This document shows, in pieces, positions 1-7,800 of a stretch of DNA of 10,767 nucleotides. A program made the position numbers and the translations under genes. Position 1 is the stretch's first letter. Each line of letters begins with the position of its first letter. Origin of the DNA: a virus (taxonomy: Duplodnaviria; Heunggongvirae; Uroviricota; Caudoviricetes); IMG/VR virus record IMGVR_UViG_2579779035_000009. The stretch is one strand, 5' to 3'. Under the pieces are notes generated by a model that had not been told where the DNA came from, searched no databases, and saw only the letters and a list, made by a program, of their open reading frames with translations.

Positions 1-65
1 TCGTGTTCAGAGTCATGTGAAATCTGGGGTGATCAATTGGAATTGGAATTCGAAGAGGTAGGGGT

Positions 66-410
66 ATGACAACCGAAATTAACTACCATGCACTGCTTGA
101 GCGCGCACGGAATAAAGTGCAGAGCATTGAGTTCGCCTTAACACAGAGTGCATTCGCTGAGATTCGCGCTGAGCTTGAAAATGATTTAGAACTGGCACGG
201 ATTGCACTGGCATCTCTGGAAGTTGAGCCAGATGAACGCGCAGCCTATGAATTATTTATGGAAAAGCGTTTCGGTAAAACAGTCGATCGTCGGAGAGCAA
301 AAAACGGCGATAACGAATACATGGCATGGGATATGACTCTCGGTTGGATCGTCTGGCAGCAACGAGCTGGTATCCGTTTTTCAACAATGTCACAGCAAGA
401 GGTGAAATAA
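66..410 (+). CDS. hypothetical protein (114 aa), function unknown, possibly island-associated
   Basis: ATG at 66 is preceded by a purine-rich Shine-Dalgarno-like run (GAGGTAGGGG). The 114-codon ORF has balanced, helix-prone composition and is co-oriented with the AlpA-like gene downstream. No family recognised by eye. Confidence 0.45.
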   Translation: MTTEINYHALLERARNKVQSIEFALTQSAFAEIRAELENDLELARIALASLEVEPDERAAYELFMEKRFGKTVDRRRAKNGDNEYMAWDMTLGWIVWQQRAGIRFSTMSQQEVK

Positions 411-541
411 TGGAGCCATACAGCCTCACACTCGATGAGGCCTGTCAGTTTCTTAAAATATCCTGATCTACCATCGCCGTCATAGAGCGTATTTTTATTA
501 CCTGATTTGCAGGTTCGATTCCCTATTCGGAGATAGCACTC

Positions 542-742
542 ATGCAACACGAACTACAGCCTGATTCACTGGTTGATTTGAAATTCATCATGGCTGATAC
601 TGGCTTTGGTAAAACCTTCATCTATGACCGGATTAAGTCAGGCGACCTGCCAAAAGCCAAAGTTATCCACGGGCGAGCAAGATGGTTATATCGTGACCAT
701 TGTGAATTCAAAAATAAGCTCTTAAGCCGCGCCAATGGGTAA
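542..742 (+). CDS. AlpA-family DNA-binding protein (phage/island excisionase-regulator-like), 66 aa
   Basis: Translation contains the AlpA-type pattern: TG-x5-IYD-x-IK-x-G-x-LPK followed by G-R-x-R-W (FIMADTGFGKTFIYDRIKSGDLPKAKVIHGRARWLY). Size of about 66 aa is typical. GGAGAT lies 8-13 nt upstream of the ATG. Assignment is from motif memory, not a search. Confidence 0.65.
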   Translation: MQHELQPDSLVDLKFIMADTGFGKTFIYDRIKSGDLPKAKVIHGRARWLYRDHCEFKNKLLSRANG

Positions 743-1140
743 AATAGCGGGTAAAATATTTCTCACATCTAAAAAACACCATTCCAATCAATCCCCTGCT
801 GCTTCAAGTAGATGTCTGCAGGGGACACCATTTATCATCCCCCTCGCAATAACCCACTTACAATCAGTGAGTTATCTTAAAATCCTTAGTATAGTCAACC
901 AGTACTTCGATATGTGAACGCAAATCATCATGCATTCGTGAACTTAACTGGAAACCTCCCCCATTCGATGTCAAAATGACTACCCCAATAAGTTGCCAAT
1001 AATCAGGCTAATCAATACGGGTCAGTCTTGCTGGTCAGTGATCATAAAAATGTCACCTCATATTAGACTCAGCAAATAATTGTGTCGATTAAACATACTA
1101 CCTTCAGCATAACCGTTCCTGAAAAATTATTATATTCAGT

Positions 1141-1233
1141 AATCTGAATAAATTACTGGCCTGCTATTTTTCTTAGCAACCATATTTAGCAGCAAGCCAG
1201 CAAATCTGAATGATTACAGATGCTGGCCTGCTG
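1141..1233. repeat. Intergenic repeat cluster: two imperfect direct repeats plus a 13-bp imperfect inverted repeat
   Basis: AATCTGAAT..TTAC..CTGGCCTGCT occurs at 1141-1166 and again at 1203-1232. CAGCAAGCCAGCA (1190-1202) is the reverse complement of TGCTGGCCTGCTG (1221-1233) with one mismatch and an 18-nt spacer. Read directly from the sequence. Confidence 0.55.
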
Positions 1234-1267
1234 AATCTCCCTTCTGGAAATCGTCAGAATCTAGTGA

Positions 1268-1798
1268 TTACTTACTTTGTTCTGGTTTCTCTTCATTCTT
1301 ATTGTGCACTTCCACTTTGGGTAATTTATTAAAAACCAGATTTTCTTTTTCAACCAGAGTCATGACTTCTTTGGTGATATCAGCTGACTCGTTATGCGCA
1401 AGCACAACACCTGAAGACAATACGGCAATATTTTTAGGATTGTCTTTTCTCCATGTGCCTATGGCATTATCTATCGCACGGGATAACACCATTTTTGCGC
1501 TATTTTCCTCAATAACATATTGTCGTTCCAGTTTTTGTCTGGCATCAAGAAGCAGCGCCTCTTTATTCGCGTTATCTGCGAATGTTTTTTGCGCATCCTC
1601 ATATCCTTTTTCAAGAATACTCTTAACCTCATTCAGATGCTTTTTGGCCATGTCTCCGGCGGTAGACTGATTATAAATAGCATCGATATTAACAACTGCA
1701 ATTTCTTTTGACTTTTTCATATAAAAAACACCAGTAAGTACAATCAGCAACAGCAGCACTACTGCATTAACAACAGAAAATTTCATTACAGAACTCAT
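1268..1798 (-). CDS. Skp/OmpH-family-like periplasmic chaperone paralog with N-terminal hydrophobic anchor or uncleaved signal (176 aa)
   Basis: N-terminus MSSVMKFSVVNAVVLLLLIVLTGVFYMKK is one roughly 20-residue hydrophobic helix with no obvious AXA cleavage site. After it, KEIAVVNIDAIYNQ resembles the Skp N-terminal strand (IAIVNxxxxxxQ), followed by a K/E/Q/A-rich helical middle. The C-terminal AHNESADITKEVMTLVEKE resembles the Skp C-terminal motif (AYNSSDVKDITADVLKQVK, recalled from memory). AGGG Shine-Dalgarno 8 nt upstream of the ATG; 47 bp downstream of the autotransporter stop on the same strand. Confidence 0.55.
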   Translation of the reverse strand: MSSVMKFSVVNAVVLLLLIVLTGVFYMKKSKEIAVVNIDAIYNQSTAGDMAKKHLNEVKSILEKGYEDAQKTFADNANKEALLLDARQKLERQYVIEENSAKMVLSRAIDNAIGTWRKDNPKNIAVLSSGVVLAHNESADITKEVMTLVEKENLVFNKLPKVEVHNKNEEKPEQSK

Positions 1799-1815
1799 TA
1801 TGACAACCCTGAGGT

Positions 1816-1836
1816 GGCAGGAGGGCCCCTCCCGCC
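1816..1836 (-). promoter_or_regulatory. GC-rich intercistronic stem-loop between autotransporter stop and chaperone RBS
   Basis: GGCAGGAGGG (1816-1825) pairs with CCCTCCCGCC (1827-1836). As minus-strand RNA this gives up to about 7-9 G-C-rich pairs including one G-U wobble. No U-tract follows on the transcribed strand, so it is not a canonical intrinsic terminator. Confidence 0.4.
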
Positions 1837-1845
1837 CCTGTGTGA

Positions 1846-4800
1846 TTAGAATATATATTTAATACCCAGCATTGCCTGGGCATCACTGTACCCTTTATCG
1901 CCAGCCTGAACACCAACATTGCCCCAGACACTCAGGTTATCTGACAATTTACCCTGAACACCCGTTTTGACTTCAGCAATATTTGTAGCTCCGTCCTGAC
2001 TGAGTGCCGTATTATCCATTTTGACACCCCAGCTCCGTGTATTATGGATCCAGTTAACTTCCACAAATGGCTCAAACTGATGCGCCTTATTATCATCAGA
2101 CGCACTCTTACCTTTCAGGTAAGTTCTGACGCCCAGACGACTCTGGATATTACCGTCTCCGCTGAGCTGAACTTTCGTGCCATTCTTCTCCGTATGCTCA
2201 CTGGCTCTTACATTCATCCACGTGATCTGGGACTGCGGCTGAATATACCAGTCATAGTGGCTACCCTGGCTACCGATAAATTCGCCGGCTTTAAAGGTAT
2301 AACCCGCTTCCACTGAACCGGTAAATCCACGGGATTTCCAGGACTCCGCAGCCAGTTTTTCACCATTAACGGTATTATTAAACCATCCGTACTGGATCCA
2401 GGTATCGACATAAGCCCCGTTGTCACTACCGTCATTCTGCTGCCACGTTCCGTATAAACCGGTGCTGTATCCATTGATCGCACCTTTAGATTTATATCCC
2501 GAAAGCGAGGATGTCGTGGAACTCTTCTCATTTCCATAACCGGCCATAATCCCCAGTTGCAGACGGTCCTGACCGTCAGTCCATTGCGCAATGCTGCCAC
2601 CCAGTTGCACAACATAACGGTTACTTTGCGTATTCAGCTGTGAACTGCTGTCCTTCCAGCGATTATGACCGCCGATATGACGCATCCACATACTTGTTGC
2701 TTTCTTCTCACCAGTAAACACATCGGTATAGTAAGTTTCCCCCTCACGATCGTGCATTCTGATGTTGAACAGCGTGTTGGCTGCCGCTATGTTCGCAATA
2801 TAAGAGCCCGCTTCCGGACGATAGACCTTCTGTACAGGTTTATCCGGCGTGGGGTGTGGCTGTGGCTGCGGTTGTGGCTGCGGCTGCGGTTGTGGTTCTG
2901 GCGGCAATTCAGAACGCAGATACCAGTTACCGTCAGTACCACCCGCATTACCTTTATGCAGGAAATATTCCCATGCCCCTGCCACCGCACGGTTCTGCAG
3001 TCTGAAGTTACCGTCAGAATGCCCACCGACATGCACAATCTCAATGCCGTCAGCGGTCTGAGCCCCCTGGCCCCGGACATTATTCACCACCACGCCGGTA
3101 TCACCGGAGGTGTTACCCGTGACAATCAGTTTGTCAGTGGCAGAAGTATCATCCCCCAGCACGGTATTGATAATTAACGTACCGCCACCGGTGTAATCGC
3201 CATTTACGGTCAGGGTATTTCCTGTCTTACCACCGGCCAGACGAATGACGCCGGTATTGGTCAGTGAACCAACCGTAAAATTGCTCGCCTCTGCCGTTTC
3301 ATAACCTGAGAGAGCATTCAGTGATGCCAGTGTTCCCTGGTTATTAACCTGACCCGAAACGGTCCCCAGCCCACTCAGTGTGCCGCCATTAAGAACATGA
3401 ATGTTTTTGGATCCTGACAACGTCGCACCAGCGGCACGGGTGACTGAATCATCACCGACAATCAGAACGCCATTCTCAACCGTGGTATCACCGGTATAAG
3501 TCAGCTCATGATTAATAATCAGATTACCCGCCCCCTGTTTCACCAGAGCGCCGGAGCCAGTAATATCATTCTTCAGTAACCAGTTTCCACTGGCGGTAAG
3601 CCAGGTGACACCATCACTGTCAATCAGCCCGGTGCCCAGGTGTTTTTCATCTGAAGCCCGCAGAGCAGCATCTTTCTGCACACGGAATTCACCGCTGAAA
3701 TTACTGTTATCCCCGGAAAGCGTCAGATCAGTGGTGTTCAATATACCCACTGAACCTTTTCCGGAAAGCGATTTACTCAGGTTACTGCTGACTCCGCTAC
3801 CGTCGGCGATATCAATCGCCAGGCGATCACTAAGGCTTTCAAAGCTGATGGAACCCTGGCTTCCCAGCCCCTGTGCGCCGTTCATTTCAACCAGCGCCCC
3901 CTGGGTAAGGCTGGCATTACCGGTAAACCCGATATTGGTGCCATGTACCGTCAGGTCGCTGCCCGTGACAGCCAGCGTTCCCTCACCGGACAGCACGTTG
4001 TTTTCAATGACGCCACCATTATCATCGCCCGGCTGACGCTGCGTGCCGCTGACCGTTAGCACACTACCGCTATCAAGCTGAATGTGCGATCCCGTTTCTG
4101 TCTGCAGTACACCGACAGTCTGGCTGTATCCGTTTGTTCTGAAGACGGCATTGCTGGCGACGTTCAGATTACCTGTTGCGCCAAGAACATTGTCATTTGC
4201 CATCTGTAATGTGCCGCTGCGCACCAGCGTATCCCCGGTATAGTTATTACCGCCGTTAGACAGTGTGACAACCTGCCCCGCAGCTTCGATGGCCAGATCC
4301 CCTGCCCCCGTTAACTGTGCGCCAAGATCTGTCTGCAGTCCTTGGGCATTCGCTCTCGGTGTCAGCACCAGCGCTTTATCACCGGTTCCCTGTAAATCCA
4401 GCGACTTCAGCCCATAGCCTATGTACAGTCCGTCACCTTTAATCCCGTCGGAGCTTCCCAGCAGCTTATAGTCATAATTTCCCTGAGCTACAACTTCACC
4501 GCCCTGAGTGACATCAAACGTCTGACTGTGAGAAATAGCCTGCCCGTTTTCATCCACCAGTTGCAGTTGCCCGCCAGTACCGGTGACGGTACCCGCTGCA
4601 TTCACCAGTGTGACCAGGGTCTGCGCATCATCCTGCTCCAGCAAATTCTTACGGGTATCAACAGCCGGAATATCATTAATCACTTCATCTGGCATGGTGA
4701 CCTGAATTGTGCCTTTCCCCCGAATATCCAGCGTACCTGCAGCAGAGGTTTCAATACTGTTGCTGGCAATGGTATCGCCCGGCATAACGGAACCAAAAAT

Positions 4801-7800
4801 CAGCGTTCCGCCATTGAACCCAAGACCGCCAATCTGCTGAACACCGGAGCCAACCGTTGTGATATTCCCGCTTTCAGACATCAGCATTGCATGGGTTAAC
4901 CCGCTCGTATTCAGCCCTTCCAGAGCAAAGCTACTGGTACCCAGCTTCAGAGTTCCGGCAAATTGATCCCCGACGTTATGGCTGAATTCAAAAGCAGATG
5001 TGTCGGCATCAAGACGGGCAGACAGTGTTCCTTTGCCTGTTAACAGTGGATCAAAGGTAAAGTTGCCTGCAACTGCAGGAATAATGGCCAGTTCGCTGCC
5101 CGATTCAATATCGACGGACCCCGGGCCGGTCCCCCCATCGGTCAGCACAAGAGCTTCCTTCAGAGTGACAAGTGAACTGTTCTTCAGCCCGACATGTTCA
5201 AAATTCTGTAGTTTTACAACAGAATCCAGCGTATGAATGGCGTTATCAAAAATCAGGGAATCAGAATCTCCCTGCCCGCCATCCAGCAGGTTCCAGGTTG
5301 CCCCTTCGCCTTTAATGGTGAAGGTGTTCTTCCCGGTACCGGCAGTAACCTGATCAACATGAGCCTTACCATTGAGTGTTACATTATTATTGCCATTTCC
5401 TGCAGTCACTTCTCCTGTCAGTGTGCTGCCATCATCAAATAAAAATGTATTGTTACCCTCTTTTGCACTGACGGTTCCGGTAATACTGCCTTTATTGGTG
5501 AATGTGTTATCACCGCCGTTCAGAGCCACAACCCCCTGAATTTCAGCACCGCTGTCATTCAGTACGGTGGTATTCACTGCGTCATCAAACGCCATTGCAG
5601 TCCCGGTGGCGGACGCAGCTTTAATCTGACCTTTATTGGTAAAGGACTGTGCTTTTGAAGCATCCACTACGGCATGACTCAGAGAAGCAGAGATGAGATT
5701 ACCGCTCTGAACCACTTCACTGGCCGCATTGTTAACCACCAGAGCGGAACCGCCATCGGCCTGTGTAACATTGACACTTGCACCACTCTTCACGACAGCA
5801 CCATCTTTAGTGTTGGCAAAAATACCCGTGCCGCCCGTGCCTTTCAGATTAATGACTAATCCAGCGGAGTCAGACATATCCAGGTTAATATCGGTTTCAC
5901 TTCCGTCAGCTTTCTGGAACGCCAGTGCAATTCCACTGCCGTCTACATTAATAGTGCCGCTGTTGGTCTTGGCCAGAGAAGCAGAAGTCCGCACACCAAT
6001 GCCATCAGCCACATTAATTTCAGTCGTATTGGTTAACTGAATGCCTTCAATTTCTGCACGGTTCTCAATCCCGTGACCGACCGCACCTGCAGCATTAACA
6101 TTGATTTTCGCACCATCAATAACCAGCCCCACAGCCCCTGTATCCAGCAGGATGCCATGCGCATTTTTCTGACCTTCGATCGTTCCCAGGCCACTCCCTG
6201 CCAGGTTCAGTGACGCGCCCGCCCCCAGCTTAATGGCAGCCTCACCATCCACAGCGACGATATCCCCTCCCGTGCTGGTAATCTGAGCGTGTTCACCTTC
6301 AACAAATAATGCAACGCCATTGACCGCTATACGGCTTCCTGTATTTTCAAAACGACCATTATCAACCCAGACGCCGATATTATCTGTACCGGTAGTGAAA
6401 TCAATGTTGCCGCTGTTAATCAACAGTCCCTGATTACGCGTAATAAAGCCCTTGGCATTATTCAGCGGCGAAGAGATATCTGCCTCATTGGTAATAACCG
6501 AGCCAGTATTCGTTTGTGTAATACTGCCATCCAGAGCGTATTCATTTCCGTCAACTTCCGCGACAACAGCGCCATCCCCTACAAGGTTAACTGATGCCCC
6601 CTGTTTCAGCGTCGCTGTCGCACCACCAGTTACATATAATCCCTGAGCCTGAGCCCCCAGGATCTGGAAATCACTGCCAGCATCAGCCAGGACATTGCTC
6701 CCTTTCCCTGTGGCCCAGATACCACGGCTGCCTGTCCCGGAGGTTTTCATCAGCAGAGAGCCGGCCTGTTTTGCCCCATCTTCAATACGGAAAAGTACAG
6801 AACGTTCCCCACTAGCATCCAGCAGAGTTCCCGCTGCAATATTCGTCTTAATGGTTGCACCATCTCCGATAATACGAAAAGCAATCTGATCGGTAATACC
6901 AGAGCCGTCAGCAGCAAAGTTCGGTACTGCCGAACCATCAAGGTTAACAGTCCCTTTATTGCTGGCCTCAACGCCAATCGCCCCCTGTCCCTGCAAAGAT
7001 ATAGTACCCGCGGTCATATTAACCGTTGTTGTTGTACCAGATGCTTTTATACCCGTTGTACGGTTAGCATTATCTCCCCCCTTGAGAACGAGATTTCCCG
7101 AGTTATTAATCGTTGTAACATCTTGTGTGGCATTAGCAATTAGTCCCACACCACCATCCTGAACTGTAATATTTCCGCTGTTGGTACCAACAGCCCCCTC
7201 CTCAACCCGGACGCCCACTGTATTCTTTCCAGTAAAGATGATATTACCGGTATTATTTAGAGTGGCCCCATTACGGGCGATATACCCGGTCACTTTATCC
7301 TGGGTGGAACTTAACTGAGCCCCCGCCGTTAATAGTGTGGTCTTGTCCTTCGGATTAATGAGTTTGCCGGAAATATCATAGCCATTGCCATCCGCAATAC
7401 CGGCTATCGCACTGGCATTATCCATATTGATAATGGCATTACTTTCAATTGTGCCCTGCGCTCCCCCTTCAATTAAAGTCGCTGTAGCCCCCTCACCCGT
7501 CAGGTTGATGGTCATTCCTCCAGACGTTACTGTCGAGGCCACACCGCCATCCGATTTTCCCGTGGCAATAAGTGCATAAGAGTTCTTACCAGACGCCGTA
7601 AGTGCAGAAGAAGCATCTGCAGTTCCCTGGAATGTCGCACCGCTGGCAATACGGAATAATGTTGAGTTTTCAGTGGACACATCCATAACACCGCTTCCGG
7701 TATTATGAATGGCAGAGTCCTTTCCATAAACATAAAAGCCTATCTGATCGCTGCTGCCAAATAGCACTGCACCATTGCCTGACAGGGTCAGACTGCCGCC

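Follow-up and report, generated by a model that had tools for sequence, protein, structure and literature searches.

A (Pro-Gln)n repeat of variable length between the passenger and the beta-barrel of the autotransporter adhesin UpaE

The upaE gene and its proline-glutamine repeat

We analyzed a stretch of 10,767 nucleotides (nt) from IMG/VR virus record IMGVR_UViG_2579779035_000009 (the window, in whose positions all coordinates are given), in which a minus-strand open reading frame (ORF) of 2637 codons carries a short repeat of proline and glutamine codons. Window positions 816-10499 are 99.9% identical to Escherichia coli Ecol_316, in which the corresponding coding sequence (CDS) is annotated as UpaE; the RefSeq product name is "phase-variable autotransporter adhesin UpaE". 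The gene order at the locus is ipuA, a LuxR-type regulator, upaE and an OmpH-family gene, with a GerE/LuxR regulator lying upstream of upaE in the window. The near-identity, this gene order and an ipuS element matching the published one (PMC6083910) identify the gene as an orthologue of upaE, which is carried by 251 of 5426 complete E. coli genomes. UpaE was characterized by Battaglioli et al. in 2018 (PMC6083910) and is listed as a matrix-binding adhesin in a 2022 review (PMC9289746). Pfam searches recognized ESPR at amino acids (aa) 1-43 (E=4.5e-13), PATR, AC_1 and the Autotransporter domain PF03797; UpaE combines an extended signal peptide, a passenger ending in an autochaperone, and an alpha-helical linker followed by a C-terminal beta-barrel, the organization of classical type Va autotransporters of the AIDA-I type.

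Read on the minus strand, which is the coding strand, nt 2895..2860 consist of the codons cca-caa ccg-cag ccg-cag cca-caa ccg-cag cca-cag, that is, (PQ)6. The codons ccg-cca-gaa (PPE) lead into the array and cca-cac ccc-acg ccg-gat (PH PT PD) continue beyond it, so that the whole Pro-X tract comprises 21 residues that hold 11 of the 37 prolines of UpaE. A first-pass annotation of the window had described an in-frame hexanucleotide (PQ)6 repeat here, and six CCR-CAR units with a period of 6 in Tandem Repeats Finder bear this out; its length must be corrected from 39 to 36 nt, and its span of 2848-2904 contains the repeat but covers PPE(PQ)6PHPT, whereas the full tract extends over 2842..2904. 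Tandem Repeats Finder reported 2855-2895 at periods 6 and 18 and 2861-2902 at period 12, the top score of 75 belonging to the 18-nt period with 95% matches; the head-to-tail units of 6 nt, a multiple of 3, are therefore overlaid by higher-order periods of 12 and 18 nt. When the codons of the gene were shuffled 5000 times, the longest dipeptide repeat reached 2-4 copies and six copies arose in none of the shuffles, placing the PQ run far beyond chance. To describe the arrays, we denote the units as a (CCACAA), b (CCGCAG) and c (CCACAG), all encoding PQ, and h (CCACAC), encoding PH.

On the opposite strand, the repeat coincides with the start of an ORF that translates to V(GC)7GSGG... and has no Pfam family match. 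As the first-pass annotation had already recognized, this frame is an artefact; it simply mirrors the CCR-CAR codons. Both this ORF and a further antisense ORF (2665..3177) were rejected as genes, as they have no Pfam family and lie inside the domain-supported gene.

Table 1 Features of upaE around the repeat (window positions)
Feature	Position	Strand	Basis
upaE CDS, 2637 aa, AIDA-I-type classical autotransporter adhesin	1846..9759	-	ORF translation, Pfam, RefSeq name
Beta-barrel translocator PF03797, aa 2357-2615	1915..2691	-	Pfam E=2e-39, 4MEE E=1e-93, model strands
Alpha-helical linker PEAGSYIANIAAANT, aa 2315-2329, fills barrel pore	2773..2817	-	AlphaFold; 4MEE block 2 from KVYRPE
Pro-X spacer PPE(PQ)6PHPTPD, aa 2286-2306, predicted disordered/extended	2842..2904	-	Translation, AlphaFold, insertion relative to AIDA-I
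Core repeat (CCR-CAR)x6 = (PQ)6, aa 2289-2300	2860..2895	-	Units a b b a b c; direct reading, Tandem Repeats Finder
Last beta-strand WYLRSE, aa 2279-2284, directly before tract	2908-2925	-	AlphaFold
Autochaperone, Pfam AC_1, aa 2163-2267	2959..3273	-	Pfam, 4MEE and 3ML3 matches
Antisense ORF, (Gly-Cys)7 start, repeat artefact	2849..3061	+	No Pfam family; wholly inside opposite-strand 2637-aa gene

To place the tract in the protein, we compared UpaE with solved structures. Its C-terminal 487 residues match the AIDA-I transport unit (PDB 4MEE) in two blocks, the first ending at ...WYLRSELPPE and the second resuming at KVYRPEAGSY, with 22 residues between them in UpaE versus 2 in AIDA-I. The autochaperone additionally matches the IcsA autochaperone structures 3ML3 and 5KE1. 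An AlphaFold model of the C-terminal module, built from a 33-sequence alignment, reached a mean predicted local distance difference test score (pLDDT) of 81.8 and a predicted template modelling score of 0.79. In this model, the last autochaperone strand occupies aa 2279-2284 (query 129-134), aa 2286-2308 (query 136-158) have no secondary structure and a pLDDT below 50, constituting the sole long low-confidence segment, and a helix at aa 2315-2329 (query 165-179), which begins 8 residues beyond the tract, leads into confident barrel strands. The placement of the tract between the passenger and the helix and barrel, as originally annotated, thus agrees both with the model and with the break in the 4MEE alignment, and the tract is predicted to form a spacer, disordered or extended, that joins the autochaperone end to the barrel-plugging helix.

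Copy-number variation and its tempo

We then surveyed the length of the tract in E. coli. An 801-nt query around it matched at 100% coverage in all 251 genomes, and 300-nt and allele-specific queries contributed extra length classes. Allele frequencies were taken from two systematic samples, whose union covers 89 of 250 chromosomal loci, plus one allele-specific ranking; the sampled genomes are not phylogenetically independent. The 89 loci fell into 11 length classes, every one a multiple of 6 nt relative to the window: 27 loci had the same length, 20 were longer by 6 nt and 25 by 36 nt, 6 were shorter by 6 nt and 3 by 12 nt, two loci each differed by +18 and +30 nt, and one locus each by +12, +54, -18 and -24 nt. 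The first-pass annotation had proposed a strain-to-strain comparison of copy number, in which an identical number throughout would have spoken against polymorphism; the sampled loci instead span 3 to 15 PQ, and its expectation that length changes keep the frame held in every class.

Representatives of each length class were fetched and the segment between fixed flank anchors was cut out. In the 15 chromosomal loci that we read (the window, L001-L007 and L009-L015), the anchors adjoining the tract are kept and the length differences map to the tract. The shortest arrays are aba (3 PQ), abc followed by two h units (3 PQ and 2 PH) and abbb (4 PQ); ababc and ababa both encode 5 PQ, the window carries abbabc (6 PQ), and abbabcc, ababbabb and abbabbabc encode 7, 8 and 9 PQ, respectively. 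Eleven PQ are encoded by two different structures, aababababab and abbababbabc, 12 PQ by abbabbabbabc, sequenced in Nissle 1917 and deduced for CFT073 from a +36-nt match, and 15 PQ by abbabbabbabbabc. In each of the nine intact alleles that we fetched, subtracting the tract difference from the annotated CDS length leaves exactly 7914 nt, and hence the tract explains every length difference among the intact 7.9-kb alleles examined. The 6-copy type was found in 74 genomes at 99% identity or more to the 6-copy query. With copy number differing among strains between conserved flanks, the tract is very likely an in-frame coding variable-number tandem repeat (VNTR).

Several of the loci read carry upaE pseudogenes (among L005/L021, L011, L012, L014 and L015). 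The gene is truncated by an IS21-like insertion sequence (IS) element in CE0026f and by an IS3 element in EC15, and is frameshifted in UID2309220036 (an AT insertion, seen in the 40-kb comparison below), A41 and SC406. A few genomes, for example A41, SC406 and C4 (two matching places), also hold a second UpaE-like C-terminal region per chromosome. In IS-truncated or frameshifted copies the tract still varies in multiples of 6 only, indicating that the in-frame pattern arises from the mutation process and not only from selection on the frame.

The length steps are exact repeat blocks of 6, 12 or 18 nt. Single 6-nt units account for the steps from 6 to 7, 6 to 5 and 12 to 11 copies; 12-nt "ab" steps, forming an (ab)n series, occur in one haplotype family (L006, L011, L015), and 18-nt "abb" steps (9, 12 and 15 copies) in another. 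Moreover, the two 11-copy arrays have different structures, as do two alleles at -12 nt, and equal lengths with different structures point to recurrent events. Loci with 9, 11 and 12 copies do not differ at all in their 1.9-kb flanks, and loci with 15 and 9 copies are one single-nucleotide polymorphism (SNP) away. Extending the comparison to about 40 kb in Nissle (12 copies), KE51 (11), CU39ES-1 (15), clone D i2 (9) and UID2309220036 (9), we found that these five genomes together differ by 13 SNPs and 3 small indels, the SNPs showing no cluster around the tract. At least 3 length events thus fall on a tree with about 3.3e-4 substitutions per site.

Four tract lengths against 13 SNPs in 40 kb imply that the tract changes far faster than point substitutions accumulate. 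By a crude comparison, the rate of change of the tract as a locus exceeds that of one nucleotide site roughly ten-thousandfold. The mutation rate per site is about 2e-10 per generation, and, on the assumption that this rate applies, an order-of-magnitude guess for the tract is about 1e-6 per generation. The ST73-like (sequence type 73) haplotype comprises about 75 genomes with 12 copies, 6 with 9, 5 with 11 and 2 with 15. By contrast, 27 of 27 sampled 6-copy loci share one length, with at least 2 flank variants included. Recent clones yielded no length heterogeneity: 12 copies were present in each of the 5 sampled Nissle-labelled assemblies, and the two household isolates of clone D, i2 and i14, share an allele of 9. 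Together, these results characterize the tract as a slow VNTR whose instability rises with the length and purity of the array, not as a fast contingency switch. Sizing by PCR within one culture, which the first-pass annotation had suggested, would most likely reveal no variation, because change is too slow; Nissle and clone D each present a single allele.

Consequences for UpaE and comparison with other autotransporters

With a 6-nt unit and 11 length classes that all differ by multiples of 6, no change in the tract disrupts the reading frame, and the tract cannot switch the gene on or off; every observed change lies within the CDS. Its only effect is to make a Pro-rich tether, located on the barrel's extracellular side, longer or shorter. 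A polyproline-II helix rises about 0.31 nm per residue, and the range from 3 to 15 PQ would span about 7 nm if the tether is polyproline-II-like. A passenger with ~2200 residues of predicted beta-helix is estimated to be tens of nanometres long, and against this the effect on reach should be modest. The suggestion in the first-pass annotation that tract length sets the distance between passenger and membrane is a geometric argument, and would concern a change that is small next to a passenger of that size.

The published phase variation of UpaE resides in ipuS, a 260-bp invertible element upstream (PMC6083910). In the window, ipuS occupies the last 275 nt (10493-10767), bounded by the 7-bp inverted repeats TGACCCA (10493-10499) and TGGGTCA (10761-10767), and the window ends exactly on the distal one. 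The element is inverted in the window relative to Ecol_316 and Nissle 1917. According to the published criterion, the ON state shortens IpuA from 209 to 198 aa and changes its terminal residue from K to F (PMC6083910). The reference orientation encodes full-length IpuA (209 aa), the OFF state of that paper, while the window orientation would give a 198-aa IpuA ending in F and hence, by the same criterion, the ON state.

Variation of this kind is already known from other autotransporters. In region 2 of pertactin (Bordetella pertussis Prn), the number of PQP repeats differs between isolates, so that both proteins are classical autotransporter adhesins with a Pro/Gln-rich stretch encoded by an in-frame tandem repeat of isolate-variable copy number (PMC3966384). 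UpaE likewise has a Pro-rich tandem repeat of allelic copy number at the C-terminal end of its passenger. In pertactin, the beta-helix of the passenger has region 2 at its C-terminal end, a position that we take to be equivalent. However, the unit is 9 nt (PQP) in pertactin and 6 nt (PQ) in UpaE, the organisms differ and there is no detectable orthology; furthermore, the variation of pertactin has been connected with selection by vaccines and with recognition by antibodies. TibA, a self-associating AIDA-I-type protein of enterotoxigenic E. coli, has a "proline-rich domain" between its junction region and membrane domain, although this region is about 50 residues long and is not described as a PQ dipeptide VNTR (PMC3835316). 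The literature that we retrieved gave no length polymorphism for it. The two proteins share their architecture and autotransporter subfamily, and the UpaE tract (aa 2286-2306) occupies the same kind of position, between AC_1 (ending at aa 2267, with the last strand ending at 2284) and the helix at 2315. A deletion study by Cote and Mourez in 2011 reportedly linked the proline-rich region of TibA to adhesion.

Among homologues of solved structure, AIDA-I (4MEE) comes closest to the C-terminal module of UpaE and has the same autochaperone end, "YRPE.GSY" helix and barrel; nevertheless, it has 2 residues where UpaE has a 22-residue insert, from which we conclude that the spacer is dispensable for the basic secretion architecture. 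To survey this junction more widely, we used a large protein search clustered at 90% identity, which also supplied the structure alignment and returned mostly paralogues of 55-60% identity, not UpaE alleles. In 117 AIDA-type relatives, 16-43 residues lie between the WYL and RPE anchors, mostly with Pro-X periodicity. Another E. coli AIDA-type paralogue (P0030, P0025, P0014 and relatives) shows the junction series ...PEPTPTPTPDSK, ...PTPTPTPTPDSK and ...PTPTPTPTPTPDSK, that is, (PT)3, (PT)4 and (PT)5, and a Yersinia AIDA-type protein has (PG)4(PD)2 at its junction. Plasmid pAPEC201602 (L008, NZ_CP127299.1, 1372-1482) carries a frameshifted paralogue of UpaE, with about 91% identity over the C-terminal region and the repeat PEPGTKPETKPETKPTPD, (PETK)3, exactly at the junction. 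An Enterobacter sp. locus, with the linker TVPDPVNPNPAPDV, was the sole one with the C-terminal module in a scan of one genome per species that requires exact peptide words. These paralogues resemble UpaE in bearing Pro-X linkers at the same junction but differ in their di- or tetrapeptide units, which suggests independent local expansions rather than one inherited repeat.

Neither proline nor a linker is mentioned anywhere in the 2018 UpaE paper (PMC6083910), and no description of tract-length polymorphism was found in the searchable UpaE literature. Given the pertactin PQP repeats and the proline-rich domain of TibA, we consider the variation of the PQ tract real but ordinary, a fresh instance in UpaE of a known phenomenon.

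Other features of the locus deserve mention. The OmpH/Skp-like gene (1268-1798, minus strand) lies 47 nt downstream of upaE; it scores 27.5 against Pfam OmpH, under the cutoff of 32.4, and is present in every chromosomal locus examined, the plasmid paralogue also having a gene at that position. Its product may serve the giant UpaE protein as a periplasmic chaperone of its own. At the left end, positions 1-815 have no match in the reference loci. The references carry a tRNA-Arg gene at the equivalent of 756-830, of which the window keeps the last 15 nt, CTGCAGGGGACACCA, at 816-830; ARAGORN found no tRNA in window positions 1-830. This end resembles the border of an element that has integrated at tRNA-Arg, with the 15 nt as an att-type partial copy of the tRNA. 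The non-matching part also contains an ORF (542..742, plus strand) with a weak HTH_17 (helix-turn-helix, excisionase/AlpA-like) match and an AATTGG tandem repeat of 3.3 copies (35-54, Tandem Repeats Finder score 33).

Interpretation of the length variation

The location of the tract, its predicted disorder, its polymorphism and stepwise change by blocks, and the speed of that change compared with SNPs in the flanks, all documented above, lead us to read it, with a probability of about 0.8, as an in-frame VNTR that encodes a disordered (Pro-Gln)n spacer, changes block by block and is near-neutral, not a control of expression. The most likely cause of copy-number change would be replication slippage or misaligned exchange between short direct repeats, a mechanism suggested by the array structures; at repeats this short, such events in E. 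coli proceed largely without RecA. The copy number would alter as whole 6-nt units, 12-nt "ab" blocks or 18-nt "abb" blocks are gained or lost, each change preserving the frame and only lengthening or shortening the spacer within 3 to 15 PQ, and the longer and purer arrays, such as the 12-copy ST73-type allele, would be the least stable. Any change in the spacer would then make the flexible link from barrel to passenger longer or shorter by a few nanometres, a difference that UpaE probably tolerates and that is probably nearly neutral, given that junctions of 2 to about 40 residues are functional in homologues. Spacer length thus probably has little functional effect, neutrality being our assumption.

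Several points weigh against this reading. Inside the PQ array, only synonymous unit variants occur, and Pro-X periodicity recurs at the junction of paralogues; some property of the spacer is therefore probably under selection, and its length could matter. Some tract variants could come from recombination between alleles, slippage is deduced from the form of the arrays, and the frequencies derive from 89 of 250 loci in genomes related by descent. The adaptive alternative holds that spacer length is a tuning knob or a site of antigenic variation, with different lengths selected to carry the passenger past lineage-specific O-antigen or capsule or to let it escape antibodies, as proposed for the pertactin PQP repeats. 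The strain-variable repeat number of pertactin (PMC3966384), the exclusively synonymous units, the recurrent spacers of paralogues and the occurrence of the longest arrays (12-15 copies) in extraintestinal-pathogen strains of the ST73-like haplotype all agree with it. Nevertheless, length tracks lineage, which makes any association with surface type inseparable from ancestry; the largest difference, 12 PQ or 24 residues, extends to about 7 nm against a passenger estimated at tens of nanometres; AIDA-I works with 2 junction residues; and pseudogenized copies vary likewise. We therefore regard adaptive tuning as doubtful, and its heritable, selected form, in which the spacer would have grown to 12-15 PQ in extraintestinal-pathogen lineages and shrunk elsewhere so as to adjust passenger stand-off, flexibility or an epitope, as likewise improbable.

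A different origin of the alleles would be homologous recombination of whole upaE segments between lineages, with the tract itself not mutating. Different copy numbers do often sit on different flank haplotypes (10-29 SNPs per 1.9 kb), and E. coli islands at tRNA loci recombine frequently; at most, however, recombination can explain part of the differences between haplotypes, since the 9-, 11- and 12-copy alleles share one haplotype with identical 1.9-kb flanks, the five genomes with four tract lengths show no clustering of their 13 SNPs at the tract, and variants differ by exact internal repeat blocks. As a full account it is very unlikely. Although some assemblies can miscall repeats, the probability that the length differences are sequencing or assembly artefacts is negligible: the tract measures just 36-114 nt, far below read length, every difference is an exact in-frame unit block, and the same alleles recur in many independent complete genomes (74 with 6 copies, ~75 with 12 including the 5 Nissle-labelled assemblies, and 6 with 9 including both clone D genomes). 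We likewise give almost no credence to the idea that the repeat is the phase-variation switch implied by the RefSeq product name. Simple-sequence repeats do drive phase variation in other autotransporters such as Lav, which resembles UpaE in having a tandem repeat (GCAA) that gains and loses units inside an adhesin gene. Units of the Lav type, however, are not multiples of 3 and switch expression on and off at high frequency, whereas the 6-nt unit of UpaE keeps the frame and changes slowly, and the published switch is the 260-bp ipuS element (PMC6083910), which the window contains. The PQ repeat was rejected as an on/off switch on unit length.

Collectively, our findings support a block-wise VNTR in upaE that is probably near-neutral and indicate that the "phase-variable" label of UpaE is unrelated to the PQ repeat. 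For typing, the tract is a simple marker, sizable by PCR, that splits upaE-positive lineages such as ST73. The papers that we retrieved on generic E. coli markers for multiple-locus VNTR analysis came without locus positions; the tract is unlikely to be identical to one of these, as they amplify in lineages such as ST131 while upaE occurs in 251 of 5426 genomes. If spacer length affected display, it would add a second, graded layer of variation above the on/off ipuS switch, and if the tuning-knob alternative were true, the junction spacers of AIDA-type proteins would represent a site at which adaptive length variation has evolved generally and repeatedly. More broadly, the junction between autochaperone and helix in AIDA-type autotransporters tolerates and repeatedly gains Pro-X spacers, a property useful for surface-display engineering.

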